Assembly: GCF_988243305.1 (NCBI RefSeq)
Contig: NZ_OZ547136.1
DNA: 64,000 nt
Reading direction: 5' to 3' (one strand)
Part shown: positions 4,013-62,877 of the stretch, piece after piece
How positions within the stretch are numbered: position 1 is the first letter of the stretch
Layout: each line of letters opens with the position of its first letter
The notes under the pieces: model-generated
Told to the model about the DNA's origin: nothing
The model's input: only the letters and a program-made list of their open reading frames with translations
Databases searched by the model: none
Position numbers and translations under genes: made by a program

Positions 4013-5269
4013 ATGACCCTTTTAGCACTCGGTATCAACCATAAAACGGCACCTGTATCGCTGCGAGAACGTGTATCGTTTTCGCCGGATAAGCTCGATC
4101 AGGCGCTTGACAGCCTGCTTGCGCAGCCGATGGTGCAGGGCGGCGTGGTGCTGTCGACGTGCAATCGCACGGAACTTTATCTTAGCGTTGAAGAGCAGGA
4201 TAACCTGCAAGAGGCGTTAATCCGCTGGCTTTGCGATTATCACAATCTTAATGAAGAAGATCTGCGTAAAAGCCTCTACTGGCATCAGGATAACGACGCG
4301 GTTAGCCATTTAATGCGTGTTGCCAGCGGCCTGGATTCACTGGTTTTGGGGGAGCCGCAGATCCTCGGTCAGGTTAAAAAAGCGTTTGCCGATTCGCAAA
4401 AAGGCCATATGAAGGCCAGCGAACTGGAACGCATGTTCCAAAAATCTTTCTCTGTAGCGAAACGCGTTCGCACTGAAACAGATATCGGTGCCAGCGCTGT
4501 GTCTGTCGCTTTTGCGGCTTGTACGCTGGCGCGGCAGATCTTTGAATCGCTCTCTACGGTCACAGTGTTGCTGGTAGGCGCGGGCGAAACCATCGAGCTG
4601 GTAGCGCGTCATCTGCGCGAACATAAAGTACAGAAGATGATTATCGCCAACCGCACTCGCGAACGTGCCCAAATTCTGGCAGATGAAGTCGGCGCGGAAG
4701 TTATTGCCCTGAGTGATATCGACGAGCGTCTGCGCGAAGCCGATATCATCATTAGTTCAACTGCAAGCCCGTTACCGATTATCGGTAAAGGCATGGTGGA
4801 GCGGGCATTAAAAAGCCGTCGCAACCAACCAATGCTGTTGGTGGATATTGCCGTTCCGCGCGATGTTGAGCCGGAAGTTGGCAAACTGGCGAATGCTTAT
4901 CTTTATAGCGTTGATGATCTGCAAAGCATCATTTCGCACAACCTGGCGCAGCGTAAAGCCGCAGCGGTTGAGGCGGAAACTATTGTCGCTCAGGAAACCA
5001 GCGAATTTATGGCGTGGCTGCGTGCACAAAGCGCCAGCGAAACTATTCGCGAGTATCGCAGCCAGGCAGAGCAAGTTCGCGATGAGTTAACCACTAAAGC
5101 GTTAGCGGCCCTTGAACAGGGCGGCGACGCACAAGCCATTATGCAGGATCTGGCATGGAAACTGACTAACCGCTTGATCCATGCGCCAACGAAATCACTT
5201 CAACAGGCCGCCCGTGACGGGGATAACGAACGCCTGAATATTCTGCGCGACAGCCTCGGGCTGGAGTAG
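4013..5269 (+). CDS. hemA: glutamyl-tRNA reductase
   Basis: Track ORF 3815-5269; internal ATG at 4013 gives [21 protein letters not shown]..., the 418-aa HemA. Confidence 0.95.
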
Positions 5270-5309
5270 CAGTACATCATTTTCTTTTTTACAGGGTGCA
5301 TTTACGCCT

Positions 5310-6392
5310 ATGAAGCCTTCTATCGTTGCCAAACTGGAAGCCCTGCATGAACGCCATGAAGAAGTTCAGGCGTTGCTGGGTGACGCGCAAACTATCGCCG
5401 ACCAGGAACGTTTTCGCGCATTATCACGCGAATATGCGCAGTTAAGTGATGTTTCGCGCTGTTTTACCGACTGGCAACAGGTTCAGGAAGATATCGAAAC
5501 CGCACAGATGATGCTCGACGATCCTGAAATGCGTGAGATGGCGCAGGATGAACTGCGTGAAGCTAAAGAAAAAAGCGAGCAACTGGAACAGCAATTACAG
5601 GTTCTGTTACTACCAAAAGATCCTGATGACGAACGTAACGCCTTCCTCGAAGTCCGTGCCGGAACCGGCGGCGACGAAGCGGCGCTGTTCGCAGGCGATC
5701 TGTTCCGTATGTACAGCCGTTATGCCGAAGCCCGCCGCTGGCGGGTAGAAATCATGAGCGCCAGCGAGGGTGAACATGGTGGTTATAAAGAGATCATCGC
5801 CAAAATTAGCGGTGATGGTGTATATGGTCGTTTGAAATTCGAATCTGGCGGTCATCGCGTGCAACGTGTTCCTGCTACGGAATCGCAGGGGCGTATTCAT
5901 ACTTCTGCTTGTACCGTTGCGGTAATGCCAGAACTGCCTGACGCAGAACTGCCGGACATCAACCCGGCAGATTTGCGCATTGATACTTTCCGCTCGTCAG
6001 GGGCGGGTGGTCAGCACGTTAACACCACCGATTCGGCAATTCGTATTACTCACTTGCCGACCGGGATTGTTGTTGAATGTCAGGACGAACGTTCACAACA
6101 TAAAAACAAAGCTAAAGCACTTTCTGTACTCGGTGCTCGCATCCACGCTGCAGAAATGGCAAAACGGCAACAGGCCGAAGCGTCTACCCGTCGTAACCTG
6201 CTGGGGAGTGGCGATCGCAGCGACCGTAACCGTACTTACAACTTCCCGCAGGGGCGCGTTACCGATCACCGCATCAACCTGACGCTCTACCGCCTGGATG
6301 AAGTGATGGAAGGTAAGCTGGATATGCTGATTGAACCGATTATCCAGGAACATCAGGCCGACCAACTGGCGGCGTTGTCCGAGCAGGAATAA
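5310..6392 (+). CDS. prfA: peptide chain release factor 1
   Basis: 360-aa ORF with GGQ motif (SGAGGQHVN) and PAT tripeptide; hemA-prfA-prmC order. Confidence 0.97.
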
Positions 6393-7617: not shown

Positions 7618-8427
7618 ATGAGATCGTTAGCTGATTTCGAATTTAATAAAGCGCCATTGTGCGAAGGCATGATCCTGGCTTGCGAAGCAATCCGCCGCGA
7701 TTTTCCCTCGCAAGATGTTTACGACGAACTGGAGCGTCTCGTTAGTCTGGCGAAGGAAGAAATCAGCCAGCTTCTGCCTTTAGAAGAGCAGCTGGAAAAA
7801 CTGATCGCGCTGTTTTACGGCGACTGGGGATTTAAAGCCTCACGCGGCGTTTATCGTCTTTCCGATGCATTATGGCTGGACCAGGTGTTAAAGAATCGAC
7901 AGGGCAGTGCGGTATCATTAGGTGCCGTTTTATTATGGGTCGCGAATCGTCTCGATTTGCCGCTGCTGCCGGTGATTTTCCCTACGCAGCTGATATTGCG
8001 CATTGAATGTCCGGATGGCGAAATTTGGTTGATTAATCCTTTTAACGGTGAATCCTTAAGCGAACATATGCTGGACGTATGGTTAAAGGGAAATATCAGC
8101 CCGTCGGCGGAACTGTTTTATGAAGACCTTGATGAAGCTGATAACATTGAGGTAATCCGCAAATTGCTGGATACACTCAAAGCTTCGTTGATGGAAGAAA
8201 ATCAGATGGAGCTGGCGTTACGTACCAGCGAAGCTTTATTACAATTCAACCCGGAAGATCCCTATGAAATTCGCGATCGCGGGTTGATTTATGCGCAACT
8301 GGATTGCGAACACGTTGCGTTGAACGATTTAAGTTATTTCGTTGAACAGTGTCCGGAAGACCCGATCAGCGAAATGATCCGTGCGCAAATAAATAACATC
8401 GCGCATAAACATATTGTGCTGCATTAA
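7618..8427 (+). CDS. sirB1: SirB1 family protein (YchA), transglutaminase-like/TPR
   Basis: 269-aa ORF in conserved position between sirB2 and kdsA. Confidence 0.85.
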   Translation: MRSLADFEFNKAPLCEGMILACEAIRRDFPSQDVYDELERLVSLAKEEISQLLPLEEQLEKLIALFYGDWGFKASRGVYRLSDALWLDQVLKNRQGSAVSLGAVLLWVANRLDLPLLPVIFPTQLILRIECPDGEIWLINPFNGESLSEHMLDVWLKGNISPSAELFYEDLDEADNIEVIRKLLDTLKASLMEENQMELALRTSEALLQFNPEDPYEIRDRGLIYAQLDCEHVALNDLSYFVEQCPEDPISEMIRAQINNIAHKHIVLH

Positions 8428-8453
8428 TTAATCGACATTTTACTCAAGATTAA

Positions 8454-9317
<864 letters not shown>

Positions 9318-9389
9318 TCTTTTTTGCTTGAAAACTAAAGCCTTAGCGTTCTGCGTTAAGGCTTTTTTCATGGGGCCGGATACAAAAAA

Positions 9390-9924
9390 GGCCGCAGGCT
9401 GTTACTCCTGCGGCCGGTTTCGGGCGCATATTGCCATCACGGCAGCCTGACGCCCGTTTTCACCTTACTTCCGGTTACGCCACCAGCTGACAATCGCTGC
9501 GGTAATAATTCCCGCCAGGATCGGTGCTGCCAGGTCGTGCCAGAAAGTCATGGCAAACTGCGCGAGCGTCATATAGCCGCCTTGTTGTAATGACAACATT
9601 TTGCGGCTATTCTTGAATTGTTCTGGTTCAAGATTAGCCCCCGTTCTGTTGTCAGGTTATACCTCTCAACGTGCGGGGGTTTTCTCTTTCCAGCAACCAA
9701 TGCCACCAGGGATAGAGCCCCCGCAACATTGCGCCTCACCGGATAACGCCGGCTTGGTGTGGATACTACGACTCAATTAATCTTCACTTCATCCCTGAAA
9801 TGTATGCAATGAAGAGTGCATTCCGGTTTTTCAACAGCTGTTACAGTCGTTTCATGAGTGCTCTGGATGATGCTTCCAGCTCGGGTTGCCAATATTTACT
9901 TGTGGAAGAGATAAAGACAAAAAA
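9390..9924. repeat. long direct repeat (LDR) unit 1, about 535 bp, carrying an ldr toxin gene and expected Rdl antisense sRNA region
   Basis: 9390-9924 is repeated almost identically at 9925 to about 10400; corresponds to the LDR elements between kdsA and chaA in E. coli. Confidence 0.85.
9465..9572 (-). CDS. ldr: type I toxin-antitoxin small toxic peptide Ldr (35 aa)
   Basis: Minus-strand ORF MTLAQFAMTFWHDLAAPILAGIITAAIVSWWRNRK; below the 60-aa track cutoff; matches the Ldr toxin family. Confidence 0.8.
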   Translation of the reverse strand: MTLAQFAMTFWHDLAAPILAGIITAAIVSWWRNRK

Positions 9925-10400
9925 GGCCGCAGGCTGTTACCCCTGCGGCCGGTTTCGGGCGCATATTGCCATCACGGCAGCCTGACGCCCGTTTTCACCT
10001 TACTTCCGGTTACGCCACCAGCTGACAATCGCTGCGGTAATAATTCCCGCCAGGATCGGTGCTGCCAGGTCGTGCCAGAAAATCATGGCAAACTGCGCGA
10101 GCGTCATATAGCCGCCTTGTTGTAATGACAACATTTTGCGGCTATTCTTGAATTGTTGATGGTTCAAGATTAGCCCCCGTTCTGTTGTCAGGTTTTACCT
10201 CTCAACGTGCGGGGGTTTTCTCTTTCCAGCAACCAATGCCACCAGGGATAAAGCCCCCGCAACATTGCGCCTCACCGGATAACGCCGGCTTGGTGTGGAT
10301 ACTACGTCTCAATTCATCTTCACTTCATCCCTGAAATGTTTGCAATAAAGAGTACATTCCGGCTTTTCAACAGCTGTTGCAGTGGTTTCGTGCAGGTTCT
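9925..10400. repeat. long direct repeat (LDR) unit 2
   Basis: Second tandem copy; homology to unit 1 decays near 10400 before chaA. Confidence 0.8.
10000..10107 (-). CDS. ldr: type I toxin-antitoxin small toxic peptide Ldr (35 aa), second copy
   Basis: Minus-strand ORF MTLAQFAMIFWHDLAAPILAGIITAAIVSWWRNRK; one substitution (I vs T at residue 9) relative to copy 1. Confidence 0.8.
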   Translation of the reverse strand: MTLAQFAMIFWHDLAAPILAGIITAAIVSWWRNRK

Positions 10401-10512
10401 GGTACAGGCTCGCAATTCTGATTAACAACCTGTTCAGGTAGTATGAAGAAATACAATAAGCAGGAATTTATATTATCTCCCCCGATTTCTGTCATCGGAG
10501 GAGATATAACTG

Positions 10513-11613
10513 TCAGGCAAATATCGTCATCAAATAGGCGGCAAACAGTGCGAGATGCGCTGCGCCATTGAGCACGTTAGTACGTCCGGTGGAGAAGGAG
10601 ATATGGCACAGCACTAAAGAGGCCACCATCACCACCATTTCTGGCGCACCAAGTGCAAACTGCAATTCGTTACCCGTCATAAAGGCAATTAGCGTGACGA
10701 CAGGTACGGTAAGCGAAATGGTTGCTAACACTGAACCAAAGAACAGATTCATCGCGCGCTGGACCTGGTTGTTCAACACTGCTTTTAACGCACCTAAACC
10801 TTCCGGCGACAGAATCAACAGAGCCACCAGGAAGCCAGTAAAGGCGACAGGGGCATTCATGCTGTCGAGCAATGTCTCCAGCGGGCTGGCGTTCATTTTG
10901 GTCACCGCAATAACGGCAATCAGATGGACAATCAACCAGATAGCATGCCACAGGCTGCTATGGGCAGACGGTTTACCGTGGTGCGGGTCGTCATCATCAC
11001 TGTCATCTTCGTGCTCGTAGACAAATAAACTTTGATGCGTTTTGGTCTGGATCAGCAAAAATACGCCATACATTGCCGCAGAAATTAATGCTACCAGTAA
11101 CGCCTGACCGGTTGAAAAATTCGCCGCAGGCAGAGCCATTGGAAATACCAGTACGATTATCGCCAGGGGGAACAGCGCAATTAAATACTGCTTGATACCA
11201 AACAGATTCATATATTGGGTGGCAAACTTGCGTCCGCCCAACAATAATGAAAAGCCAACCAGCCCACCGGTAACAATCATAATGATTGAATAGAGCGTAT
11301 CACGCATTAGCGTTGGCGCGGCGTCGCCGGTTGCCATTAAAGCTGAAATCAAACTGACTTCAAGAATAACCACTGAAAGGCTAAGAATAAGCGAACCGTA
11401 AGGTTCTCCCAGGCGATGGGCTAATACGTCCGCATGACGGACAACACTAAAGGCGCTACTTAAAATACCAATAAGAGCAAGAAGATTGATGCCAATGACC
11501 ACTGGTAGTGTCTGGCTGCTTCCCCACAGGAACAGCACTACCAGCGCCAGAACCGGGAAAATAAGCGAAGTCTCCTTGTGGCGGGTTTTTACCGCCTCTT
11601 GAGCATTTGACAT
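10513..11613 (-). CDS. chaA: Na+/K+:H+ antiporter ChaA
   Basis: Track ORF 10513-11700; internal ATG at 11613 gives MSNAQEAVKTRHKETSLIFPV..., the 366-aa ChaA; acidic EHEDDSDDDD loop. Confidence 0.93.
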   Translation of the reverse strand: MSNAQEAVKTRHKETSLIFPVLALVVLFLWGSSQTLPVVIGINLLALIGILSSAFSVVRHADVLAHRLGEPYGSLILSLSVVILEVSLISALMATGDAAPTLMRDTLYSIIMIVTGGLVGFSLLLGGRKFATQYMNLFGIKQYLIALFPLAIIVLVFPMALPAANFSTGQALLVALISAAMYGVFLLIQTKTHQSLFVYEHEDDSDDDDPHHGKPSAHSSLWHAIWLIVHLIAVIAVTKMNASPLETLLDSMNAPVAFTGFLVALLILSPEGLGALKAVLNNQVQRAMNLFFGSVLATISLTVPVVTLIAFMTGNELQFALGAPEMVVMVASLVLCHISFSTGRTNVLNGAAHLALFAAYLMTIFA

Positions 11614-26310: not shown

Positions 26311-26350
26311 AATTAGCTCGGAGTAACAGGTTTTGAGTATTTACAGGAAG

Positions 26351-27063
26351 TGATGGTGGTGGGGGAAGGATTACTCAGCGCTGCGCGCTTCACCCTTCGG
26401 GTCGTTGCCTGCGGCAACGCTTTCTCGCTGGCGCTCGAGTCGCACCTTGGTCGAAGCTTCTCATCCTTCCCCGCATGGGCAGAATATTTAATTGCGGATT
26501 CGTTTGAGAGTTCACGGACTTTTGAAAAGTGATGGTGGTGGGAGAAGGATTACTCAGCGCTGCGCGCTTCGCCCTTCGGGTCGTTGCCTGCGGCAACGCT
26601 CTCTCGCTGGCGCTCAAGTCGAACCTTGGTTGAAGCTTCTCATCCTTCCCCGCATGGGCAGAATATTTGATTGCGGATTCGTTTGAGAATTCCGGGGCTT
26701 TTGAAAGTTATGGTGGTGGGGGAAGGATTACTCAGCGCTGCGCGCTTCGCCCTTCGGGTCGTTGCCTGCGGCCACGCTCTCTCGCTGGCGCTCGAGTCGA
26801 ACCTTGGTCGAAGCTTCTCATCCTTCCCCGCATGGGCAGAATATTTAATCGCGGATTCGTTTGAGAGTTCACGGACTTTTGAAAGTGATGGTGGTAGGGG
26901 AAGGATTACTCAGCGCTGCGCGCTTCGCCCTTCGGGTCGTTGCCTGCGGCAACGCTCTCTCGCTGGCGCTCGAGTCGAACCTTGGTCGAAGCTTCTCATC
27001 CTTCCCCGCTTGGGCAGAATATTTAATTACGGATTCGTTTGAGAGTTCAGGGACTTTTGAAAG
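26351..27063 (-). repeat. rttR: about 178-bp tandem repeat array downstream of the tyrT-tyrV tRNA genes (rtT RNA / tpr region)
   Basis: Four tandem copies beginning near 26351, 26529, 26709 and 26886, each opening with TGGTGGTGGGGGAAGGATT that mimics the tRNA-Tyr 3' end; known architecture of the tyrT operon. Confidence 0.85.
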
Positions 27064-27066
27064 TGA

Positions 27067-27151
<85 letters not shown>

Positions 27152-52109: not shown

Positions 52110-52154
52110 TTTTCTCTGCAAAACCTCTGCAAAACCCCTCTGCAAAACTGGTCA

Positions 52155-53285
52155 TCAAATGACCAGTTTTTTCCATTCCTTACCGCGTGCGTCGTTGTAA
52201 ATATCGGTCATTTTTTGATTCGAATGGCCTAGCAAAATTTTGGTATCAACCCCCTGCTCTCTGAACAATCGCTCTGATAAAGATCTCTGCTCATGGAAAG
52301 AGGGAGGGGTGCCATTAGCACGCCAGTTGTAATCCACAGAATCCCGGGCTTTTTTAAATGCAACGGTTAATGTTGCTGGCTTAACCATCCCGCCGCGCTT
52401 AGCTGTCCCTTTCGCGTGATGGTGGTGCAATAGCCACGGACTAAGAACGCAATCGCGGCAGGATGACACCACATCATCCAGGGTGAGATTTAATTTATCG
52501 CAACGCAGAGCCAGAGGGATGGCAATCCGGGTTCCTGTTTTTTGCTGTTCGACATGAAGATAACCATCCCGGATATCCGAAAATTGCATTTTGCAAATAT
52601 CTGAAAGGCGCTGGCCTGTCATCAGTGCCAGCAGCATACCGCGCTGTAAAAAGTAACCATCCTTTTCCGCTGCGTTATAAATCATCATCCACTCATCAAA
52701 AGTCAGTCGCTGTCTTGATATCCGCACCTGCGGTTTTTTTGCCGATTCTGCAGGGTTAAAGCCTGGCGGGACATCGCCCGTTTGCTGAGCTTCCCGGAAA
52801 ACATCGATCAGTACTTTCCTGAAAATTTGTCCCATTCTGTTATGTCCTCTGGCCTTGTACTCTTCCAGTACTGATACCACATCTTTTACGGTTATGGCAT
52901 CTAACGGTCTGGTGCCAAAACGTTCATCAAATACCCTGAGAGGGGCCGCTTTCTGTTTCAGCGTGTTGAGTTTGATCTCGCCGTTTTCATATCTTTCCTG
53001 TTGAATTTTTCTGTAATTATTCAGAAAAATGGTAACGGTTGATGAACCGCCGGTATCACTAATAATTTTCTCCTGCAGACTGAGCATTTGTTCCATTTGC
53101 TGCCGGGCAAGACGGCTGTTCGCTTCTGCTGCAATAGTTTCTGCCAGTTTCTGGTCAATACTGCCGAGACCGTGATTTTTGCCTGTTATGGGATGCCTGT
53201 AACGCCAGTAAACTTTGTTATTTCTTTTGTCAAAATACGGAGATAATCCCGGAACATCGGTTTTATATTTTCGCGGGCGCGCCAT
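52155..53285 (-). CDS. int: phage tyrosine integrase (lambda Int family)
   Basis: 376-aa ORF; C-terminal catalytic region with LGHSNQKMTDIYNDARG (Tyr nucleophile context); 3' end overlaps the hairpin adjacent to ompW. Confidence 0.9.
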   Translation of the reverse strand: MARPRKYKTDVPGLSPYFDKRNNKVYWRYRHPITGKNHGLGSIDQKLAETIAAEANSRLARQQMEQMLSLQEKIISDTGGSSTVTIFLNNYRKIQQERYENGEIKLNTLKQKAAPLRVFDERFGTRPLDAITVKDVVSVLEEYKARGHNRMGQIFRKVLIDVFREAQQTGDVPPGFNPAESAKKPQVRISRQRLTFDEWMMIYNAAEKDGYFLQRGMLLALMTGQRLSDICKMQFSDIRDGYLHVEQQKTGTRIAIPLALRCDKLNLTLDDVVSSCRDCVLSPWLLHHHHAKGTAKRGGMVKPATLTVAFKKARDSVDYNWRANGTPPSFHEQRSLSERLFREQGVDTKILLGHSNQKMTDIYNDARGKEWKKLVI

Positions 53286-53511
53286 CTTCCAGTATCCTCT
53301 TCAAAGCAGGGTGATCTGTGGCGATCACCTCCGGCTTGTTTACCATTCCGACAAAGCGAGCTTGCGGATCCACTCGCCAGCGTCTTCCAACTTTTTTGGG
53401 GAGAGGAAATATCATTCCGGCTTTAGCGTATTTACTTAACGTACTCGGAGTAGGGACCGGTTCACTGAATTCCTCTTTTGCCCACTCAGTGAGCAGAATA
53501 AGTCTTGCCAT
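53263..53511 (-). CDS. xis: excisionase-like DNA-binding protein
   Basis: 82-aa ORF MARLILLTEWAKEEF... with a winged-helix pattern similar to lambda Xis (MYLTLQEWNARQ...); overlaps int start by 23 nt. Confidence 0.7.
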   Translation of the reverse strand: MARLILLTEWAKEEFSEPVPTPSTLSKYAKAGMIFPLPKKVGRRWRVDPQARFVGMVNKPEVIATDHPALKRILEDGAPAKI

Positions 53512-53575
53512 GAGCGTCGTTCGCTAATCATGGTCGCCGCCACTATAGCTGGTGGGCAACGACCGGGGTTGAACA

Positions 53576-56050
53576 TTAAAAATCAGCCTGATTCGGGATC
53601 AGTTTTTGCCAGATAGTTGAAACGTATTTTGCCTGGTAACGGGCATCATCCAGCGCATTGTGGCGCTCACCTTCGAATGGAATAGCCGCCCTGGCATCGA
53701 AGTCCATGGCTTTTCCCAGCTCAACGATTGTGCGTACATCGCGATCGTTGTAGTAACGCCACGGGCAGGGGATCCCCTGCCGTTCGTATGAACGGCGCAA
53801 AATCGTGTTGTCGAAGTTGGCTCCATTTCCCCAGACCTGAACAAAAAATTCGCCGGAGTTTTCGTCGATAAATTCCCGCAATTGCAGCAGTGCATCATCT
53901 AACGGGATTTCATCGGTCAGAATGGCAGATTGCGCCTCCCGTGATTGCTTAAGCCACCATTTAATGGTGCCACGATCAATGACTCCGCCAGCAGTATCCA
54001 TATCGATGGTCTTACTAAATTCCGGCCCCATATCTCCGGTTTGCGGATCGAAAAATATTGCACCTATTGAGATAAGCGGGGCATCGGGATTTTTTCCCAT
54101 GGTTTCAAGGTCGATCATCATGTGGTGCCACATTCTGCTGGTGGATGTGATTTCTTGATGACCGTTCACCTTAATTGAGTGATCTGCCGTCTCGCCAGTT
54201 TCATTATCGCTATCGTGATGCTGATTGCCGCCAGTGTTCTCCTTGTGTGGATGTTCAGCGCCTTCCATTTCCTCTGGATCATCTTCCTGAACTTCAGGCT
54301 GATACTCTTCATCGAATGTTTCCTGGTATGTTGCGTCGCCCATTACCGCGCCACAATCAGGGCAGTTGCCGCCGCCGGTCTGACCGCAGGCGGTGCAGAC
54401 TTTTTCCACTTCCTGTTGCGCCACTGATTCAGGCTGTTTCGTTTCTGGCTCGTTTTGTAACGCATTTGGGCTGTTTTGTTCCGCTTTCTGGTCGTTCTGT
54501 TCCGTTTCTTGCTGGTTCTGGTTCACAGAATCGCGGGTCTGGTTCCCCTTAACCCATTTCGGATCATTCGGGTCGCTAATCCCTTCAACAAATTCACCAC
54601 GTGATACTGCAAGCAGTTCATCGGCGTCAGGCTGGCTGATATTGGCTGCCTGCATAATTTTGTTTACTTCGTCAGCGGTAACTTTTACTGGCTCTGGTTG
54701 TGCGGTCGTGTCAGATGCACCAGTATTTTGTTGTGAACCTGAGTATGTACCGTTTTTACGTGCGAAGTATTCCTCTTTTGTGATTTCCGTAGCTCCCAGG
54801 GCCAGTGCTTTTTCCAGACCAGAAAGTTTGTTTGCGCGACCGTATTTTTCGCCGTCCTTATCGGTGAAAAGGAAGTAGAACGGTCCCTCACGCTCTACAG
54901 ATGGTTCGTCTTCCACTTCGCATTCGGTTTTTTCGTTGTCCGGCATTGCCGTTTCCACTGCATCAGTTTCTGGTACTGGTGACGGGAGAGTACCAGCTGT
55001 GCCCTGATTTGTTCCTTCGTCATCTTCAAACACGCCCTTGGTAGTCAGGTATTCAGTGATGTATTTGTTCAGTGCTACGGGATCTTTGTGAATGTCGATC
55101 GGACGCTCACGGACAAGGCCAAAAATAGTCTGACGGTCGTAGCGAACGGCATCGGGTTGTTTGCGCATTGATGCGGAAATGCGCTTCCAGTCTTCGCGAT
55201 CTTTGTCGATAACTTCATTTTTTGCCCAGCGATGGATGCTGCCGTCAATGTTTCCGGTATCAATATCGCCAGGCCAGAGAGCGTAGGCCAGTTCTTCATC
55301 CAGCGTTTTCCATGTCTGCTTGTATTCGCGACAAATGGCGGCAGTGACTGGGTTGATTTTTCCTGCTGAGTTTTCAGTGTTCTGTTGATTGACTCTGGCG
55401 CGGGCGAGATCAACAACAGACGTGTATTTTCCGGTTTCCTTGCGTTCACCTTCGCGACGTTTTTTCCAGATGCGCATCTCTGCCTGAATTTCGGGCCATT
55501 TGGCACCAGGCTTACATTTATGCTTAACCCACCCGATGGCATGCAGCTTAAGCTCCGGATACATGGCGTTAACTTCTGGCATTTTCATCAACGCTTCAAC
55601 GATATGTCCGTCGAATGTTGCCATGTCTTCCTGCAACAATTCCTGTGCGCTAATAACCATATCAACGGTGATGTTTTCACATGTGTCGAACTTAACCATG
55701 ACAGCGTTCTGTACTTCAGGGGCCAGCTTGTCAAAAGTGACGTTCATCGGATCGGATTCAGTCTCAACCGGGACAAAGGAAGCAGACTCCTCATCCCAGC
55801 GGTTTTCCTGCATATATTCAGCATCCCAGGAATCGAGGGCAGGGCGGGGTATACCGGGTTTATCCTCGCAGACAAGAAATTTATAAGCGCAGTCCTGAGC
55901 AGCCGGATAATGCTCCAGGAATTGCCAGTGAAATTTTGCGCGGGCGCGACGTTCATCACCGGCTTCAATGGCAGTGGCTACAGCGACGGCACCTTCTTCC
56001 TTTATTGCCTGTTCGTCCGGAATGGCGGCGCAAATAAAGACTTTACTCAT
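53576..56050 (-). CDS. large prophage exonuclease: RecE/exonuclease VIII-like positional homolog with C-terminal DnaQ-like (DEDDh) 3'-5' exonuclease motifs and an internal CxxC-x8-CxxC zinc ribbon
   Basis: 824-aa ORF; C-terminal motifs MIDLETMG (Exo I), WGNGANFD (Exo II), HNALDDARYQA (Exo III); Cys pair CTACGQTGGGNCPDCG; acidic low-complexity linker; positioned between dicB and xis like lambdoid exo genes. Confidence 0.7.
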   Translation of the reverse strand: MSKVFICAAIPDEQAIKEEGAVAVATAIEAGDERRARAKFHWQFLEHYPAAQDCAYKFLVCEDKPGIPRPALDSWDAEYMQENRWDEESASFVPVETESDPMNVTFDKLAPEVQNAVMVKFDTCENITVDMVISAQELLQEDMATFDGHIVEALMKMPEVNAMYPELKLHAIGWVKHKCKPGAKWPEIQAEMRIWKKRREGERKETGKYTSVVDLARARVNQQNTENSAGKINPVTAAICREYKQTWKTLDEELAYALWPGDIDTGNIDGSIHRWAKNEVIDKDREDWKRISASMRKQPDAVRYDRQTIFGLVRERPIDIHKDPVALNKYITEYLTTKGVFEDDEGTNQGTAGTLPSPVPETDAVETAMPDNEKTECEVEDEPSVEREGPFYFLFTDKDGEKYGRANKLSGLEKALALGATEITKEEYFARKNGTYSGSQQNTGASDTTAQPEPVKVTADEVNKIMQAANISQPDADELLAVSRGEFVEGISDPNDPKWVKGNQTRDSVNQNQQETEQNDQKAEQNSPNALQNEPETKQPESVAQQEVEKVCTACGQTGGGNCPDCGAVMGDATYQETFDEEYQPEVQEDDPEEMEGAEHPHKENTGGNQHHDSDNETGETADHSIKVNGHQEITSTSRMWHHMMIDLETMGKNPDAPLISIGAIFFDPQTGDMGPEFSKTIDMDTAGGVIDRGTIKWWLKQSREAQSAILTDEIPLDDALLQLREFIDENSGEFFVQVWGNGANFDNTILRRSYERQGIPCPWRYYNDRDVRTIVELGKAMDFDARAAIPFEGERHNALDDARYQAKYVSTIWQKLIPNQADF

Positions 56051-56222
56051 TTTGTTTTACCTCATTACAGATTTAAGGGTGAACAAATCCCTGCCATTGC
56101 TGGCATATAAGAATGAAACCGGATATTTATTACGGAACTGTTTTAAAGACCTGCCGGGATTTCGATATCAACTGGCTCTCCGGAAACAAGAAAAACTGTC
56201 AGAACAAGTGCAAATGCTGTAT

Positions 56223-56411
56223 TCATTGCCAGCATCCTTTTTGTATCGGACGTAAACGGGCCAGCATTGAAAGAATGCATATTTTATTTAATAGCTCCCG
56301 TTCGTGTTTTCTCTTGTTAATGGCATCTTCAGTAAATACAGGGTTACTGATAGTGACACCAATTTCAAAACAACCTTCAGACGTATTAACGTTTGGTAAT
56401 AACGTTTCCAT
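56223..56411 (-). CDS. dicB: cell division inhibitor DicB
   Basis: 62-aa ORF METLLPNVNTSEGCFEIGVTISNPVFTEDAINKRK... from ATG 56411 (GAGG SD upstream) inside track ORF 56223-56516; lies about 170 nt downstream of DicF as in the dicB operon. Confidence 0.75.
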   Translation of the reverse strand: METLLPNVNTSEGCFEIGVTISNPVFTEDAINKRKHERELLNKICILSMLARLRPIQKGCWQ

Positions 56412-56585
56412 TATCGCGTCCTCAACAATGAATTTTGTGATGCGGTGCCTGGTGCCTCCAGGTGACGTTAACCAGTTAACAATTAACGCCGGATACAGAG
56501 AATCCACCCATAACACTGTTTTTGGTTTTAACTGTTCCGCGTGCGCTCAGCCGCATTCACCACATCACAAAATTCACTTTAAAAA

Positions 56586-56638
56586 GGGCGGCAGAGCAGT
56601 CACGGAGTAAAACTGATACCGCCAAACGTCACCAGAAA
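56586..56638 (-). ncRNA. dicF: DicF small regulatory RNA (ftsZ-targeting)
   Basis: Reverse complement reads TTTCTGGTGACGTTTGGCGGTATCAGTTTTACTCCGTGACTGCTCTGCCGCCC followed by a T-run; matches the 53-nt DicF sequence as recalled, with its 3' terminator hairpin. Confidence 0.75.
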
Positions 56639-56977
56639 ATTGATAACAGAGGGCGTTGCAGCGGGGTTGTCACTTAAGCGTATGGTCAACCTGACAACCC
56701 GGTGTCCTCAACGGGGGAAGGAATAACCCCGCCATACTTACCGCCGCGCCATTTCGCGGATTGCCACAACCGGAAGCGCACGGTCGACGAAAATTTAACG
56801 ACAGGCTATCTATGAACCAGCTACCTCGCCGTGCGCTTTCGCGTTATGGTCTGACTTTTCAGGGAAATATCCTTTCAGTAAACTGTCAGTGCCGGATTCT
56901 TATCCGTGTCCGGCGCACGACCACACGCTGTCACGAGAGGTCTCCATTCTCAACCAGTAACCTCAATGGAGGATAAA

Positions 56978-57172
56978 ATGTCAGAGCAGGAGTTAAAACT
57001 TGGTGCATGTTATTGTGTTCTCAAGGAGCTGGTACACATGCTTCCATCTACTCAGTATCAACAGTTAGTTGGCAATTTAAATCAGCGAATCGAAGCTATG
57101 TTAAAATCTGATGGTTTTAATAACGTAGAAACGCTGATGCTAAAAAGATATCTTGATGGATTAATCAGATAA
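56978..57172 (+). CDS. hypothetical small protein (64 aa) encoded convergently within the early-left region
   Basis: ATG at 56978 preceded by a strong SD (TGGAGGATAAAATG); MSEQELKLGACYCVLKELVHMLPSTQYQQLVGNLNQRIEAMLK...; inside track ORF 56906-57172; no competing minus-strand ORF over 25 aa in this interval. Confidence 0.5.
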   Translation: MSEQELKLGACYCVLKELVHMLPSTQYQQLVGNLNQRIEAMLKSDGFNNVETLMLKRYLDGLIR

Positions 57173-57499
57173 CATTTTTTTACGGCGTTCATATTCGTTA
57201 ATATTTATGAAGCCTGTTGCCAGAAGCAGTTCGTTAATTTCATGGTTGTTTGGCTGTTTCTGGCTCTTTGAGCTGGGATCTTCCACTTCTTTTTCTGCAA
57301 ATTGTTTTGCTGTATCCTCTGTGCCATGGATATTTAAAGCTGTATCTGAAAACAGCCCAGTAAACGCATCGCGCACATTACGAGCCATATTATCAGTGTC
57401 TTTTTTTGTTACCGATTCCAATTCAAGTTCGTTCAGACGATGACGAAGTGTGTGTGCTGCAATCTCCTGGATTGAAGGAGGTAAATCTTTAAATTCCAT
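57161..57499 (-). CDS. hypothetical early-left protein (112 aa)
   Basis: Track ORF 57161-57511; start placed at second ATG 57499 (MEFKDLPPSIQEIAAHTL...) which has a GAGG SD; 3' end overlaps the convergent plus-strand ORF by 12 nt. Confidence 0.55.
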   Translation of the reverse strand: MEFKDLPPSIQEIAAHTLRHRLNELELESVTKKDTDNMARNVRDAFTGLFSDTALNIHGTEDTAKQFAEKEVEDPSSKSQKQPNNHEINELLLATGFININEYERRKKMLSD

Positions 57500-57510
57500 C
57501 GTCAACCTCA

Positions 57511-57744
57511 TCAGTCAGTGTTTCTTGCTAACCAGCGATGCGCGCCAGCTGCGGTTTTAAACGTTTTACTTTTGGTATACGTCATCGCGGTGAAGGTGCC
57601 GTCCTGGTTAGGGAACACACCGCATACCAGAGATTCGTTGTTGCCAAGATCGATAGTATCCATGCTGACCTCATTTCCCCTTAACGCCGGGGTAGCGGAA
57701 CAAAAACCTGCTGCATAGTTATTAAAGTTGAACCCTGCCGTCAT
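57511..57744 (-). CDS. hypothetical early-left small protein (possibly YdfB-like); start ambiguous (57744 or internal ATG 57663)
   Basis: Track ORF of 77 aa; both ATG 57744 and ATG 57663 (MDTIDLGNNESLVCGVFPNQDGTF...) have GAGG SD sequences upstream; first gene downstream of the OL-type operator. Confidence 0.55.
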   Translation of the reverse strand: MTAGFNFNNYAAGFCSATPALRGNEVSMDTIDLGNNESLVCGVFPNQDGTFTAMTYTKSKTFKTAAGAHRWLARNTD

Positions 57745-57846
57745 GTTCTTACGCCTCGGGCTGGCTACTTACCCCCTGACCACTGCTTGGTAACTCGAAG
57801 TATTGCCCGGCGTTCTGTGGGGCGGGGTGGGTTGGTATGTTGTTAA

Positions 57847-57860
57847 GGTAACAAGAGTTA
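57847..57860. promoter_or_regulatory. candidate left operator (OL) for the prophage repressor
   Basis: 14-bp palindrome GTAACAAGAGTTAC (GTAAC-N4-GTTAC), same motif as the two sites between the cI-like and cro-like genes. Confidence 0.55.
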
Positions 57861-57903
57861 CCTTTCGAGTCAATACAATGTTGCAAAAGGTACATTCGAG
57901 GGC

Positions 57904-57930
57904 ATAAAAAACCCGCAATGAATGCGGGTT
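57904..57930 (-). terminator. rho-independent terminator after the repressor gene
   Basis: Minus-strand hairpin ACCCGCATTCATTGCGGGT followed by a T-run immediately after the cI-like stop. Confidence 0.7.
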
Positions 57931-57935
57931 CTGAC

Positions 57936-58610
57936 TCAGTCTAAGTATTGATGTATTTGTGAAACTTTACCTTTAATGGTGTAACCACCATTAAGTTCGA
58001 TGGGTTTGTAAAGCGGATTCAGTGACAACAGATAGATGTTTGGTCCGTCAATCGCAACTTTTTTTAGTGTTACGTTTGGCGTTCCTTCCAATTGGATTAA
58101 GATTATTTTTCCCACCAGTTCTCTAATGTTACTTGAGCATGGTGTGATCAGCACGGTAGATCCGTCGGGGATGGTTGGGAGGCCGTTAGAGTTTGTCATC
58201 GCATCTCCCTCAACATGCAATAAAAAAGAGTTTTCAGCGGTTTTTGTCATGACATCAACCCAATTCTTAATACCAGGAATCTCGGTTACTGGACAACTCA
58301 TATCCCAATAACCAGCCTGTTCCCACGTTAAAACGGGCAACCGGGCGATGTTGTCACTAATGTAAGGGTACTGATTCAGACGCAGATCATCGGCTTTATC
58401 GTGACCGTCCTTTCCATAAAGAATCCATTCAGGAGATTTGGAAAGCAATTTTGACAGTAGATACAAATTCTCACCGTCAGGTTTTGAAGAGCCATTTTCC
58501 CATTTTGTTACGGATACACGAGATATGCCGATTGCTTTCGCAACCTGCTGTTGGGTTAATCCAACGTCTTTTCGACGATTCCGAATACGTTCGCTGATAG
58601 TGTTTTTCAT
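57936..58610 (-). CDS. prophage CI-like repressor (XRE HTH N-terminal domain plus S24/LexA-like autopeptidase C-terminal domain)
   Basis: Track ORF 57936-58709; start placed at ATG 58610 (MKNTISERIRNRRKDVGLTQQQVAKAIGISRVSVTKWENG...) by close resemblance to the P22 C2 N-terminus; C-terminal Ser/Lys dyad context (GDAM...KK). Confidence 0.85.
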   Translation of the reverse strand: MKNTISERIRNRRKDVGLTQQQVAKAIGISRVSVTKWENGSSKPDGENLYLLSKLLSKSPEWILYGKDGHDKADDLRLNQYPYISDNIARLPVLTWEQAGYWDMSCPVTEIPGIKNWVDVMTKTAENSFLLHVEGDAMTNSNGLPTIPDGSTVLITPCSSNIRELVGKIILIQLEGTPNVTLKKVAIDGPNIYLLSLNPLYKPIELNGGYTIKGKVSQIHQYLD

Positions 58611-58624
58611 GTAACCAATGTTAC
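58611..58624. promoter_or_regulatory. candidate right operator site (PRM-proximal)
   Basis: Palindrome GTAACCAATGTTAC immediately upstream of the repressor start. Confidence 0.55.
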
Positions 58625-58658
58625 TACCAAGTGATGTTGCTATGGTTGACATTGTTAT

Positions 58659-58672
58659 GTAACTATTGTTAC
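58659..58672. promoter_or_regulatory. candidate right operator site (PR-proximal)
   Basis: Palindrome GTAACTATTGTTAC adjacent to a TTGACA hexamer (58646-58651) upstream of the cro-like gene. Confidence 0.55.
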
Positions 58673-58701
58673 CCTTCTGCTCGAAATAACAGGAGAGTTT
58701 T

Positions 58702-58917
58702 ATGTTCAAAGATGATGTTCTGCGCTATTTCAAAAAAAAGCGACTAGTAGCTGAGGCTCTTGGAATTTCACATGTGGCTGTTGTGCGGTGGAAAGCAGTT
58801 ATTCCCAAACTTCGCGCAATGGAACTGGATGAAATTACTAACGGTGAATTGAAATACAACCCAGAACTTTACAAGAAGCAGGATAGCACCTCAAACGAAG
58901 GAAAGAATGATTCATGA
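58702..58917 (+). CDS. Cro-like/YdaS-family HTH DNA-binding protein
   Basis: 71-aa ORF with SD AGGAGAG; HTH segment LVAEALGISHVAVVRW; divergent from the repressor gene. Confidence 0.7.
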   Translation: MFKDDVLRYFKKKRLVAEALGISHVAVVRWKAVIPKLRAMELDEITNGELKYNPELYKKQDSTSNEGKNDS

Positions 58918-59339
58918 AAATCAAGCATGAACACATCCGCATGGCGATGAATGTCTGGGCGCATCCGGACGGCGAAAAAGTGCCGGCTGCGAAAATTACC
59001 AAAGCGTATTTCGAGCTGGGAATGACGTTCCCGGAACTGTATGACGACAGCCATCCGGAAGCCCTGGCCCGTAATACCCAGAAAATTTTCCGTTGGCTGG
59101 ATAAAGACACCCCTGATGCTGTTGAAAAAATGCAGGCTCTGTTACCGGCGATCGAAAAGGCGATGCCGCCTTTGCTGGTGGCCCGTATGCGCAGCCACAG
59201 TTCTGAATATTACCGTGAGATCGTCGAACGGAGGGATCGGCTGGTGAAGGATGTCGATGATTTTGTTGCGTCAGCGGTTGTTTTGTATGACCAGATGAAT
59301 CGCGGCGGCCCGGCAGGGAATGCTGTGGTGATGCACTAA
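58914..59339 (+). CDS. CII-like/YdaT-family prophage regulator
   Basis: 141-aa ORF overlapping the cro-like stop; size and position match the YdaT family that follows ydaS in Rac-type prophages. Confidence 0.55.
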   Translation: MKIKHEHIRMAMNVWAHPDGEKVPAAKITKAYFELGMTFPELYDDSHPEALARNTQKIFRWLDKDTPDAVEKMQALLPAIEKAMPPLLVARMRSHSSEYYREIVERRDRLVKDVDDFVASAVVLYDQMNRGGPAGNAVVMH

Positions 59340-59361
59340 AAGCACGGTGTTCGGGGGTTTT

Positions 59362-60324
59362 ATGAGCAGCAAGCTTCATGGTCTTGTCTGGGAAGGGTGC
59401 GCCTTCACCGGCATGATCTTATCCAGGGTGGCGGTTATGGCCCGTCTTGCAGACTACAGCAATGACGAGGGCGTGTCATGGCCTGCCATTGAAACTATCC
59501 GGCGTCAGATCGGTGCAAGAAGTGAATCCACAGTGAAATCGGCTATTGCAGAACTGGCGAAAGAGGGCTGGCTGACGAAGGAAGAGCGTAAGGTCGGTGG
59601 GCGTAATGTAAGCAATATCTATCGGCTTAATGTGGAAAAACTCGAAGCAGCTGCGGCGGCGGCGCGTGAGTCATATAAACCGAAAAGAAAAATTAGCCCG
59701 GCAAAAAATGACCCGTTAACAGTTGACCCGTCAAATATTGACCCCTCAACGGTTGACCCGTCAAATTTTGATGGATCAACTGTTGATAAAAAACTGCCGA
59801 TTAGGGGGGCGATGATTGACCCCGATCCGTCAGTATTAAAACCTGATCCGTCAGATAAAAGATCTTCTTGTCCGGACGCTTCGCAACCGGACCCGCAGAC
59901 GGCTGAACAGGATTTTTTAACCCGACACCCTGACGCGGTTGTGTTCAGTGCGAAAAAACGCCAGTGGGGAAGTCAGGAAGATTTGGTGTGCGCACAGTGG
60001 ATCTGGGGACGAATCGTGAGTCTTTACGAGCAGGCGGCCAGCTATGATGGCGAGATCACTAGACCGAAAGAACCCAACTGGACAGCATGGGCCAATGACG
60101 TTCGCACAATGCGGATGCTGGATGGCAGAACTCACAGACAAATTTGTGAAATGTTTGGGCGTCTCCAGCGGGATTCGTTCTGGGTAAAAAACATCATGAG
60201 TCCGGCAAAACTCCGGGAAAAATGGGATGAACTGGTTATCCGCCTGGGGCGTTCGCCTGCGCAGCGTTGCGTGAATCACATTTCTGAACCGGACACTGAA
60301 ATTCCGCCGGGCTTCAGGGGGTAA
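59362..60324 (+). CDS. phage replication initiator (lambda O-like, HTH N-terminal domain) containing internal iteron-like repeats
   Basis: Track ORF from GTG 59347; ATG 59362 has a GGGGG SD; N-terminal winged-helix segment (LSRVAVMARLADYSNDEGVSWPAIETIRRQIG); central DPS-rich linker encoded by repeated TTGACCCGTCAA units. Confidence 0.6.
   Translation: MSSKLHGLVWEGCAFTGMILSRVAVMARLADYSNDEGVSWPAIETIRRQIGARSESTVKSAIAELAKEGWLTKEERKVGGRNVSNIYRLNVEKLEAAAAAARESYKPKRKISPAKNDPLTVDPSNIDPSTVDPSNFDGSTVDKKLPIRGAMIDPDPSVLKPDPSDKRSSCPDASQPDPQTAEQDFLTRHPDAVVFSAKKRQWGSQEDLVCAQWIWGRIVSLYEQAASYDGEITRPKEPNWTAWANDVRTMRMLDGRTHRQICEMFGRLQRDSFWVKNIMSPAKLREKWDELVIRLGRSPAQRCVNHISEPDTEIPPGFRG
59708..59790. repeat. iteron-like direct repeats (candidate phage replication origin) inside the replication gene
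   Basis: About five copies of a 12-15 bp unit (TTGACCCGTCAAAT and variants, each an internal dyad TTGAC/GTCAA) followed by an A-rich stretch GATAAAAAACTG. Confidence 0.6.
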
Positions 60325-60364
60325 GTGTTAATTTCTGGTCATGAGGTAATTTTCAGGAGGACTT

Positions 60365-60640
60365 GTGGCAAAAGTTTTTACACAAGAAGAGCGGGAAAAA
60401 ATTAAAGGGCTGATCGTGGAATTCGTACGCCTTAACGGACGAGGCACGATTCGGCAGTTATCGGATGAAATTGGTGTCAGTCATACGTCTGTCGGTCGTT
60501 TATGCATGGAGCTGGCCGCCAGTGGTGATGTTTACAATTCCGGTTACGGAGTATTCCCGTCTGAGCAGGCGCGCAAGGACTGGCAAAACGCCCGCAAAAA
60601 AACTCTCAAGGGCAAAGCTGAAGAAACCATCTGTGGTTGA
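60365..60640 (+). CDS. hypothetical small protein with predicted winged-helix/HTH segment
   Basis: 91-aa ORF from GTG with SD CAGGAGGAC; HTH-like GTIRQLSDEIGVSHTSVGRLCMELAASG. Confidence 0.5.
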   Translation: MAKVFTQEEREKIKGLIVEFVRLNGRGTIRQLSDEIGVSHTSVGRLCMELAASGDVYNSGYGVFPSEQARKDWQNARKKTLKGKAEETICG

Positions 60641-60788
60641 TCCGGACCTTATCTGGCTATTACCTGACGGAGAAATACGTCGCTACGACAGGCGTCAGAA
60701 CATAATCTGTCGCGAGTGCCGGAAGAGCGAAGTTATGCAGCGCGTACTGGCGTTTTATCAGGGGAATTTTCAGGAGGTAGCGCAGTGA
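60633..60788 (+). CDS. hypothetical micro-protein (51 aa), translationally coupled
   Basis: GTG at 60633 overlaps the upstream stop (GTGGTTGA); its stop overlaps the next start (GTGA); part of track ORF 60465-60788. Confidence 0.35.
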   Translation: MVDPDLIWLLPDGEIRRYDRRQNIICRECRKSEVMQRVLAFYQGNFQEVAQ

Positions 60789-61273
60789 GTGCACCGGCAA
60801 CCATTCTTGATATGTGCTGTGGCAGCCGTATGTTCTGGTTCGATAAGAATGACGACCGGGCGATATTTAGCGATATCAGAAAAGAAGAGCACACATTGTG
60901 TGATGGACGACGCCTGATTATCAGTCCTGACCTGATAGCAGATTTTCGAGCATTACCATTTGCAGACGCATCGTTTCCGGTTGTTGTATTCGACCCTCCG
61001 CATCTTGAGTGTGTTGGTGATAAAGCCTGGATGGGAAAGAAATATGGACGGTTGAATAAAGATACCTGGCGTGATGATTTGCGGCAGGGATTTAAAGAAG
61101 CTTTTCGTGTGTTGTGGCCACATGGCGTTCTGATTTTTAAATGGAATGAAACGCAAATATCTGTCCGCCAGATATTGGCACTAACCGACGCGAAACCAAT
61201 CATCAGCCAGCGCACCGGTAAGAACGATAAAACACATTGGATTATTTTTGTGAAGGAGGCGACCAGTGGGTAA
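60785..61273 (+). CDS. putative SAM-dependent (DNA) methyltransferase, orphan
   Basis: Track ORF 60716-61273; GTG at 60785 preceded by SD CAGGAGG; motif I-like ILDMCCGSRMF and motif IV-like FDPPHL; no adjacent restriction endonuclease gene. Confidence 0.5.
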   Translation: MSAPATILDMCCGSRMFWFDKNDDRAIFSDIRKEEHTLCDGRRLIISPDLIADFRALPFADASFPVVVFDPPHLECVGDKAWMGKKYGRLNKDTWRDDLRQGFKEAFRVLWPHGVLIFKWNETQISVRQILALTDAKPIISQRTGKNDKTHWIIFVKEATSG

Positions 61274-61520
61274 ATCAAAATGCCAGGTTTATGGCAACAA
61301 GATAGAACCGTGTACGACCCTGGCAAAATCCCTTGAGCATGATGCTGAATACACGATGCGAAAAGGTCTGCTGATATACAAAATCTGGAATGAGAGTTTA
61401 ACTCGCGGTCCTGATTTTGTGATGTTGCGTTCCGGTGAATTTTCTAAATTACCAGTTCGGGTTTCATTTTGTCCGTTCTGTGGTGAAAGTCTGAAAACGT
61501 GGGAGAACAGAAATGAATGA
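61266..61520 (+). CDS. hypothetical zinc-ribbon protein
   Basis: 84-aa ORF with Cys pairs C6/C16 and CPFC near the C-terminus; overlaps neighbours by 8 nt on each side. Confidence 0.45.
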   Translation: MGKSKCQVYGNKIEPCTTLAKSLEHDAEYTMRKGLLIYKIWNESLTRGPDFVMLRSGEFSKLPVRVSFCPFCGESLKTWENRNE

Positions 61521-61824
61521 AATTAAAGAAATACCAGTAGTACGTGATGAATATGGCTACTGGACGCATCCTGAATATGAAAAATTCTGTGACGGTCGGG
61601 AATATATTTCAACGGAAGAGTTTAACGCCTGGATGGAGGAAAATAATCTTCAATACGTCCTCTGCTTCAGAGATGAAGGATGTGCTGACCTTGATGCGTG
61701 TGATGCTGATATTTCTGCATGGGAACCGGAACGACCAGAGGGCAATGGATGGTTTATTGGTTCAATACATGACACCGAAGATGGCCCGGTTTGTGTATGG
61801 CTGAGAAATAAGGCCGAAGCATAA
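61513..61824 (+). CDS. hypothetical acidic phage protein
   Basis: 103-aa ORF, D/E-rich (DEGCADLDACDADISAWEPERPEG). Confidence 0.45.
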   Translation: MNEIKEIPVVRDEYGYWTHPEYEKFCDGREYISTEEFNAWMEENNLQYVLCFRDEGCADLDACDADISAWEPERPEGNGWFIGSIHDTEDGPVCVWLRNKAEA

Positions 61825-61952
61825 AGGCTATAAACCGACTAACAACTAAATACTGAAGATTTAAATCAGAAACGATTTTTATTAAATCCTTAACCGGAGG
61901 GATTCCTGCACCCTCAGAACATCAGGAGGCCGTCCGAAAGGGCGGTAGTGAA

Positions 61953-62135
61953 ATGCGAAAATTCAAAATAATTATTGAAACGGGAATAGCCGGTGGAGAT
62001 TTCGAGGATGAATTCGAAGTGGATGATGATGCAACACCAGATGAAATACAGGATGAAGCTAAAGATATTTTCTTTAACTACTGCAATTACTCATACCACG
62101 AAATAAAAGACGAAGAGGAAGAACAAAATGGCTGA
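61953..62135 (+). CDS. hypothetical very acidic small protein (60 aa)
   Basis: About one third of residues are D/E (FEDEFEVDDDATPDEIQDEAKD...KDEEEEQNG). Confidence 0.45.
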   Translation: MRKFKIIIETGIAGGDFEDEFEVDDDATPDEIQDEAKDIFFNYCNYSYHEIKDEEEEQNG

Positions 62136-62304
62136 TTTTGGTTCAACTAAATATAACGCCAGTTTTGAAGAATGGCATGAACTGTTAATGGATTATGCAG
62201 AGTTACGCGGTGGAAGTGCCGCTGATGCTGAAGCATGGCGTGATGATTATGAAGCAGGGAAAACACCGGTCGAAGCATATTGTGATGAGTGGGGCGATGA
62301 ATGA
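62128..62304 (+). CDS. hypothetical acidic small protein (58 aa)
   Basis: ATG 62128 overlaps upstream stop (ATGGCTGA); MADFGSTKYNASFEEWHELLMDYAELRGGSAADAEAWRDDYEAGKTPVEAYCDEWGDE; below track size cutoff. Confidence 0.4.
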   Translation: MADFGSTKYNASFEEWHELLMDYAELRGGSAADAEAWRDDYEAGKTPVEAYCDEWGDE

Positions 62305-62660
62305 GCGAGATTAATTATCAGGAAGGGCATGAAAAGGTAGGGCAGGCAAAACCAGTGGCATGGCGATATCGCTACGTGAAAAAAGGCGTTACAGACTTTC
62401 AGGGGAAGCAGTGGGTTGGTGACTGGAAATATGTCCCGACAAAAGAGGATTGTAACGACAGACCAAACTATGAAATTCAGGCGTTATTCACGGCCCCGCC
62501 AGCTTCGGTGACATCAGAAGGACTGGTTAAAGCTGTGCGCTTTTATGAACAGGTACGGCGTGAGGATCCGCCAGTTGAAACCGGAGCATGGAAAGACGCT
62601 ATTGACTGGGTACTCAAGGAGGCCTGCCTGGTTGTAAACACGGGCATCAAAGGAGGCTGA
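62301..62660 (+). CDS. hypothetical phage protein
   Basis: 119-aa ORF, start overlaps upstream stop (ATGA). Confidence 0.45.
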   Translation: MSEINYQEGHEKVGQAKPVAWRYRYVKKGVTDFQGKQWVGDWKYVPTKEDCNDRPNYEIQALFTAPPASVTSEGLVKAVRFYEQVRREDPPVETGAWKDAIDWVLKEACLVVNTGIKGG

Positions 62661-62876: not shown

Positions 62877-62877
62877 T

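Follow-up and report, generated by a model that had tools for sequence, protein, structure and literature searches.

In the window, that is, the whole 64,000-nucleotide stretch of DNA that was analysed (contig NZ_OZ547136.1, assembly GCF_988243305.1), two LDR units lie between kdsA (8463..9317, plus strand) and chaA (10513..11613, minus strand), where the direct-repeat search found them as head-to-tail direct repeats with a spacing of 535/536 bp. Unit 1 (9382..9916, 535 bp) is on the kdsA side and carries an "alpha" leader patch like that of K-12 LDR-A, and unit 2 (9917..10452, 536 bp) is on the chaA side and carries a "gamma" leader patch with one extra base; neither unit as a whole is assigned a strand. 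The final ~100 bp of unit 2 are chaA-side flank, as in K-12 LDR-C. The same search returned the pair as two repeat families, one of 241 nt at 99% identity (9382-9622 versus 9917-10157) and one of 300 nt at 86% identity (9624-9923 versus 10160-10459). A gapped alignment of 9382-9853 with 9917-10389 gave 14 differences in 472 nt (~97% identity), and beyond these homologous 472 nt the units diverge because unit 1 enters the inter-unit junction and unit 2 enters the chaA flank. The array is absent from the Tandem Repeats Finder output, since the longest period covered there is 500 bp. A preliminary description of this DNA had proposed two tandem units of about 535 bp with a 35-aa Ldr toxin on the minus strand, which the repeat search, the open reading frames and the matches to PF13940 and RF01813 confirm. 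Its span of 9390-10400 located the array correctly, but the true extent is slightly wider, from 9382 to 10452.

The statement in the same description that K-12 has three LDR copies here is correct, as MG1655 has ldrA/rdlA, ldrB/rdlB and ldrC/rdlC between kdsA and chaA. When the check that it had proposed, an alignment to K-12 LDR-A/B/C, was run, the window units showed 96% mean column identity. The two arrays share locus, flanks, unit size (~535 bp), orientation, 35-aa toxin, Rdl position, terminators and inter-unit junction, with unit 1 of the window resembling LDR-A and the chaA-side end of unit 2 resembling LDR-C. They differ in that K-12 has three units and the window two, and in that the three K-12 units are without the extra base of the gamma patch that is present in unit 2 of the window.

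Toxin genes and antisense RNAs

Both units encode a 35-aa toxin on the minus strand. Toxin gene 1 (9465..9572) encodes the T9/S29 peptide MTLAQFAMTFWHDLAAPILAGIITAAIVSWWRNRK (PF13940, 89.9 bits), which is WP_000170965.1 and is annotated at the same coordinates in strain 118UI. Toxin gene 2 (10000..10107) encodes the I9/S29 peptide MTLAQFAMIFWHDLAAPILAGIITAAIVSWWRNRK (PF13940, 86 bits), which is WP_000170955.1 and identical to K-12 LdrA/LdrC. Both products span positions 1-35 of the 35 positions of the Pfam Ldr_toxin profile PF13940 (cut-off 27 bits; E=1e-25), and together with the RF01813 matches of the accompanying antisense RNAs (E=3.5e-18 and 2.8e-17) these scores exclude chance open reading frames. 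[quoted passage not shown] The nearest solved structure is that of LdrD (PDB 5LBJ), with an alignment that covers all 35 residues. Ldr is a single-pass inner-membrane peptide of 35 aa. On overexpression, LdrA lowers ATP within minutes and arrests growth, presumably by pore formation, and LdrD rapidly condenses the nucleoid and makes cells lose viability (PMC8309996; PMC12643268).

The two toxins of the window differ only at residue 9, T in unit 1 and I in unit 2, as had been described beforehand and as the comparison of translations bears out; the cause is a single base, a plus-strand G at 9547 versus A at 10082. T9/S29 combines the T9 of K-12 LdrB (T9/G29) with the S29 of LdrA/LdrC, and the combination is not found in K-12. 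The earlier wording of a "toxin variant", taken to mean anything uncommon, does not hold, as each of the two alleles is recorded on at least 1,000 contigs and I9/S29 is that of LdrA/LdrC. Ten units from four strains already include all four combinations of T or I at residue 9 with S or G at residue 29, which indicates recombination or gene conversion between units.

An antisense RNA gene accompanies each toxin gene on the plus strand. rdl 1 (9620..9685, 66 nt) matches RF01813 over its full length with 87 bits and has a predicted minimum free energy of -26.7 kcal/mol (z = -5.3), and rdl 2 (10156..10221, 66 nt) matches over its full length with 83.6 bits (z = -4.5), the gathering score of this Rfam family (rdlD) being 50 bits. 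Each rdl starts 48 nt upstream of its ldr ATG, the same offset as in K-12 rdlA, and lies across the ldr 5' UTR rather than the coding sequence, on the opposite strand and complementary to its own ldr leader. Such ~60-nt cis-antisense RNAs to the ldr 5' UTR block the toxin at translation (PMC4147584; PMC8167048), and relief of toxicity by the cognate Rdl has been reported for LdrD/RdlD and for LdrA (PMC4147584; PMC8309996; PMC12643268), while the manner of repression is still debated (PMC8309996).

In the predicted fold of both Rdl RNAs, a single-stranded tail at the 5' end is followed by a long hairpin resembling a terminator. Rdl-1 and Rdl-2 differ exactly in the two parts predicted to be single-stranded, namely the 5' tail, by a substitution and a 1-nt indel (GUUCUGG versus (G)UUGAUGG), and the apical loop, by one base (A9659 in unit 1 versus U10195 in unit 2; GGUUAUACC versus GGUUUUACC), where K-12 rdlA carries a G at the position equivalent to 9659. 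Perfect complementarity therefore exists only between an Rdl and the ldr leader of the same unit. The apical-loop base also sets, on the ldr strand, the fate of a 56-codon GTG frame (9569-9739), which is open in unit 1 and ends at a TAA after 26 codons in unit 2.

Intrinsic terminators are predicted on the minus strand for the ldr-1 mRNA (9384..9415, a 9-bp GC-rich stem followed by T6) and, as a hairpin prediction, for the ldr-2 mRNA (9919..9950); according to the terminator prediction, a GC-rich hairpin with a T-run ends both rdl RNAs as well as both ldr transcripts. A strict sigma-70 consensus scan returned no promoter in 9300-10520, so that the following promoters, read by eye, are of low confidence. 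A putative -10 element of ldr-1, TAGTAT (9763..9768, minus strand), aligns with TAGAAT upstream of K-12 ldrD, and its equivalent in unit 2 would be at 10299-10304, also on the minus strand. With this start the ldr-1 mRNA would run from ~9756 to 9385 (~370 nt). A putative rdl-1 promoter (9585..9613, plus strand; TTGTAA, 17 nt, TATTCT) agrees with the consensus at 8/12 positions, below the scan threshold, and its end lies 7 nt ahead of the start of rdl; in unit 2 the corresponding element would lie at 10120-10148 on the same strand.

Leader types and the state of the two modules

Variation within the functional unit is greatest in a patch at 9618-9626, in the Rdl 5' tail, which occurs in three types: alpha (CCAGAACAATTC) in unit 1 of the window and in K-12 LDR-A; beta (AACCAGACACTTC) in K-12 LDR-B and LDR-C and in Sakai unit 2; and gamma (CCATCAACAATTC), which is one base longer, in unit 2 of the window, Sakai unit 1 and 23CRST001 unit 2. 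K-12 has the patches in the order alpha-beta-beta, 23CRST001 has alpha-gamma-beta, the window alpha-gamma and Sakai gamma-beta. Among 5,426 complete E. coli genomes, 3,812 have the alpha type, 3,742 the beta type and 2,816 the gamma type.

In every unit examined, a TTG inside the region complementary to Rdl opens a reading frame. Alpha and beta leaders have this TTG 59 nt upstream of the toxin ATG, opening a 20-codon frame that overlaps the toxin start (ATGA); in unit 1 of the window this leader frame is at 9569..9631 on the minus strand, its TGA overlapping the ldr ATG. In the gamma leader the TTG is 60 nt upstream rather than 59 and is therefore in frame with ldr, so that the leader of unit 2 (10108..10167, minus strand) forms with the toxin a single frame of 55 codons (10000-10167). 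Between the two units of the window, then, a 1-nt indel in the patch targeted by Rdl switches the frame of the leader. The in-frame geometry of unit 2, with TTG 60 nt upstream of the ATG, is that of K-12 LDR-D (ldrD-rdlD), the experimentally characterised member, whose Rdl has the same structure as those of the window (RF01813). LDR-D differs in being a single unit at bcsG-yhjV, unlike the tandem pair in the window, and in its toxin, which shares ~20 of 35 residues with the window toxins as counted from the alignment; the published identity between LdrA and LdrD is 57% (PMC8309996).

A model resembling hok/sok has been proposed for these loci, in which Rdl blocks a leader frame, "ldrX", that is coupled to ldr (PMC4147584; PMC8167048). 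In hok/sok (with mok), the proposed analogue, the antisense RNA blocks a leader frame coupled to the toxin frame (PMC4147584); the hok/sok toxin family is unrelated to Ldr, and coupling for ldr is a proposal. By this analogy the TTG leader frame of unit 1 is a candidate coupling frame of the ldrX type.

The features of unit 2 raise the question of whether one of the modules is decaying and non-functional, which would leave effectively one working Ldr/Rdl system at the locus. Its 1-nt leader insertion shifts the upstream ORF into another frame with respect to ldr, and its upstream 56-codon GTG frame is cut by a TAA. This TAA is, however, also present in K-12 LDR-B and LDR-C, and the gamma leader is found in 2,816 of the 5,426 genomes and shares its in-frame geometry with LDR-D, which has been shown by experiment to be toxic and regulated. 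Moreover, both ldr frames are intact, both rdl genes are of full length and above the Rfam threshold, and the terminators of both units are intact. Decay of one module is thus quite improbable. Our main reading, to which we give a probability of about 93%, is that the locus represents an allele of the E. coli LDR array between kdsA and chaA with two complete, apparently functional Ldr/Rdl type I modules, the function of both being suggested by their intactness and homology.

Within this reading, the two units may also be non-redundant, that is, mutually insulated and maybe with different translation routes or products, if translation of the leader frame gates toxin synthesis. Repression by the cognate Rdl only is conceivable because the Rdl differences sit in the predicted single-stranded tail and apical loop, but we regard non-redundancy as unlikely. 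A comparable arrangement is that of the ibs/sib loci, which are tandem duplicates in one intergenic region with strain-variable copy number, like LDR, and in which repression is limited to cognate sRNA-mRNA pairs (PMC2943612; PMC2887945). The ibs/sib toxin and RNA families differ from Ldr and Rdl.

Copy number among E. coli genomes

The number of units was counted in 5,426 complete E. coli genomes with queries that contained the flanks on the kdsA and chaA sides and none of the array. The census rests on the joining rule of the search, under which two matching pieces are treated as one match up to a gap of half the query length plus 500 bases; the length of the query therefore fixes the largest array that is still joined. 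A query of 600 nt, for which the largest array is one unit, joined 1,291 genomes; one of 1,600 nt (up to two units) joined 2,721; and one of 2,600 nt (up to three units) joined 5,248 of the 5,424 genomes with a match. By subtraction, one unit is present in 1,291 genomes (~24% of 5,426), two in ~1,430 (26%) and three in ~2,527 (47%), proportions that mirror the composition of the database, which is skewed to clinical lineages, and are not natural frequencies. The match spans listed fit the sizes expected for one, two and three units, and an independent count through the leader-patch types gave 11,934 units versus ~12,260 predicted by the copy census. A query that contained the repeats gave 2,821 genomes with one or two units, 100 off the 2,721 of the flank-only query, which we prefer because it is independent of how the repeats align.

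The remaining 176 genomes fall outside the one-to-three class and have either more units or an insertion. The only one of them that was inspected, 23CRST001, has three units plus ISVsa5, so that the class does not consist entirely of arrays of four or more. ISVsa5 (IS4-like) lies at 4679-5887 of the locus extracted from 23CRST001, between the third LDR unit and chaA, where it replaces the upstream region of the third unit; such insertions explain at least part of the 176.

Variation in Ldr number among enterobacterial genomes was tabulated by Fozo et al. in 2010, who inferred lineage-specific duplications and losses (PMC2887945). The unusualness of two copies that the preliminary description implied was not borne out, as two units are present in ~26% of the 5,426 genomes and in the reference strain O157:H7 Sakai, which has two ldr genes between kdsA and chaA (ECs_5717 and ECs_5718, both annotated ldrB); two copies in reference strains were what the description had itself named as refuting its point. 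Sakai resembles the window in having a two-unit array at this locus with one unit of gamma type; it differs in the order, gamma-beta versus alpha-gamma, and in its toxins, I9/G29 and T9/G29. The chaA-proximal unit of Sakai has in addition a 6-nt deletion (columns 9641-9646 in window coordinates) ~70 nt upstream of its ldr ATG, which is at 3330 of the extracted locus. To judge from its position, the deletion shortens the 5' arm of the rdl hairpin, and this Rdl may be impaired though the ldr frame is intact.

The units share ~97% identity over 472 nt, and an assembler working from short reads could in principle merge such repeats, in which case the two units of the window might stand for three or more real ones. 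Against this, the same two-unit sequence, 100% identical over 1,801 bp, is found in independent complete genomes, including strain 118UI, in which the 1,801-bp locus is 100% identical to the window, with 99.3-99.4% identity and indels elsewhere. Two units are also present in 58 of 60 complete genomes with 100%-identical 1.6-kb flanks, in each of the 16 genomes that best match the window over its first 25 kb (at 99.9% identity) and in ~1,430 complete genomes overall. Furthermore, the units can be told apart at 14 sites and an indel, and the junction between them is normal, as between K-12 LDR-A and LDR-B. Collapse is very unlikely, given that the two-unit structure recurs in 58 of the 60 genomes with identical flanks. 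Two units are the normal state of the lineage of the window strain, neither an artefact nor a rare event.

Comparison with 118UI also revealed differences elsewhere in the window. Downstream of narI, the tyrT/rtT region contains a 178-bp tandem array of 4.1 copies (26348-27085), which is about two copies shorter in 118UI and is thus a second tandem repeat of the window with variable copy number. Between galU and hns (~32062), 118UI has an IS200C insertion that the window is without, seen as a jump of ~356 bp in the alignment offset. The annotation of 118UI indicates that a lambdoid prophage adjoins ompW from ~52150 to 64000 of the window, with genes for integrase, excisionase and exonuclease, dicB, ydfC and replication genes. 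Beyond ~56.2 kb identity to 118UI is patchy and falls to 81-91%, and the prophage therefore differs between these close strains.

Recombination between units

Three close relatives with complete genomes carry a single unit, and their locus differs from that of the window by the absence of exactly one unit of 535 bp. Ec-FL1-1X and TUM14759 have a locus of 2,483 bp that is identical to window positions 8382-9546 joined to 9942-11399, which retains the I9 toxin and places the crossover within a 140-bp stretch identical between the units. The locus of Z1323HEC0462 equals 8382-9622 joined to 10083-11399, with the T9 toxin retained and the crossover within the adjacent identical stretch of 75 bp. 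Apart from the missing unit there is no further change in 2.5 kb in any of these relatives. Two distinct crossover intervals, both in identical stretches, directly support unequal homologous recombination, and the three alleles represent at least two independent in-register losses of one unit from the two-unit allele of the window. We also considered the reverse route, a duplication from one unit to two among these close relatives, and rejected it because it would not yield units that differ at 14 sites. The earlier suggestion that copy-number variation here reflects recombination between repeats is supported by these three near-identical strains, each one unit short, with crossovers in identical stretches.

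The origin of the two-unit state itself is a more tentative matter. The allele of the window may descend from a three-unit alpha-gamma-beta ancestor by unequal crossover of the second and third units, which would have left a hybrid unit next to chaA. Consistent with this, unit 2 of the window bears the gamma leader patch together with beta-typical bases at 9811, 9818, 9827 and 9843 in its upstream part, 23CRST001 shows the three types in just this order, and the gamma-beta array of Sakai resembles the complementary loss of the first unit. On the other hand, the ancestor is based on ten units of four strains without an outgroup, gene conversion could produce the same mosaics as the proposed crossover, and Fozo et al. 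infer lineage-specific duplications besides losses (PMC2887945). We give this descent slightly less than an even chance; in the alternative direction, two units would be the older state and three would have arisen by duplication.

Whatever the order of events in the past, the main reading of two functional modules leads to the following proposal for how the locus works. From each unit a minus-strand mRNA of ~370 nt would encode the 35-aa single-pass membrane toxin Ldr, and a 66-nt plus-strand Rdl would be transcribed from within the region of the ldr 5' UTR. By analogy with LdrD/RdlD and the work on LdrA, this Rdl, perfectly complementary to the leader, would prevent translation of the toxin. 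The number of units, one to three and rarely more among E. coli lineages, would shift by unequal homologous recombination or slippage between units that are ~97% identical, and recombination or gene conversion would shuffle alleles between them.

The system is fully known, the locus being a textbook type I toxin-antitoxin array with strain differences in Ldr number tabulated in 2010 (PMC2887945), and the result has little consequence beyond correct annotation. Its by-products are a copy census at population scale, the exact mapping of two independent losses of a unit in near-identical strains, and a catalogue of the three types of leader. This catalogue bears on the ldrX coupling model, itself a proposal: both leader geometries are common, so that the window is not special in this respect, and any model of ldrX coupling must accommodate both. 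Insulation between units, if true, would extend to the alpha, beta and gamma leader types across E. coli.
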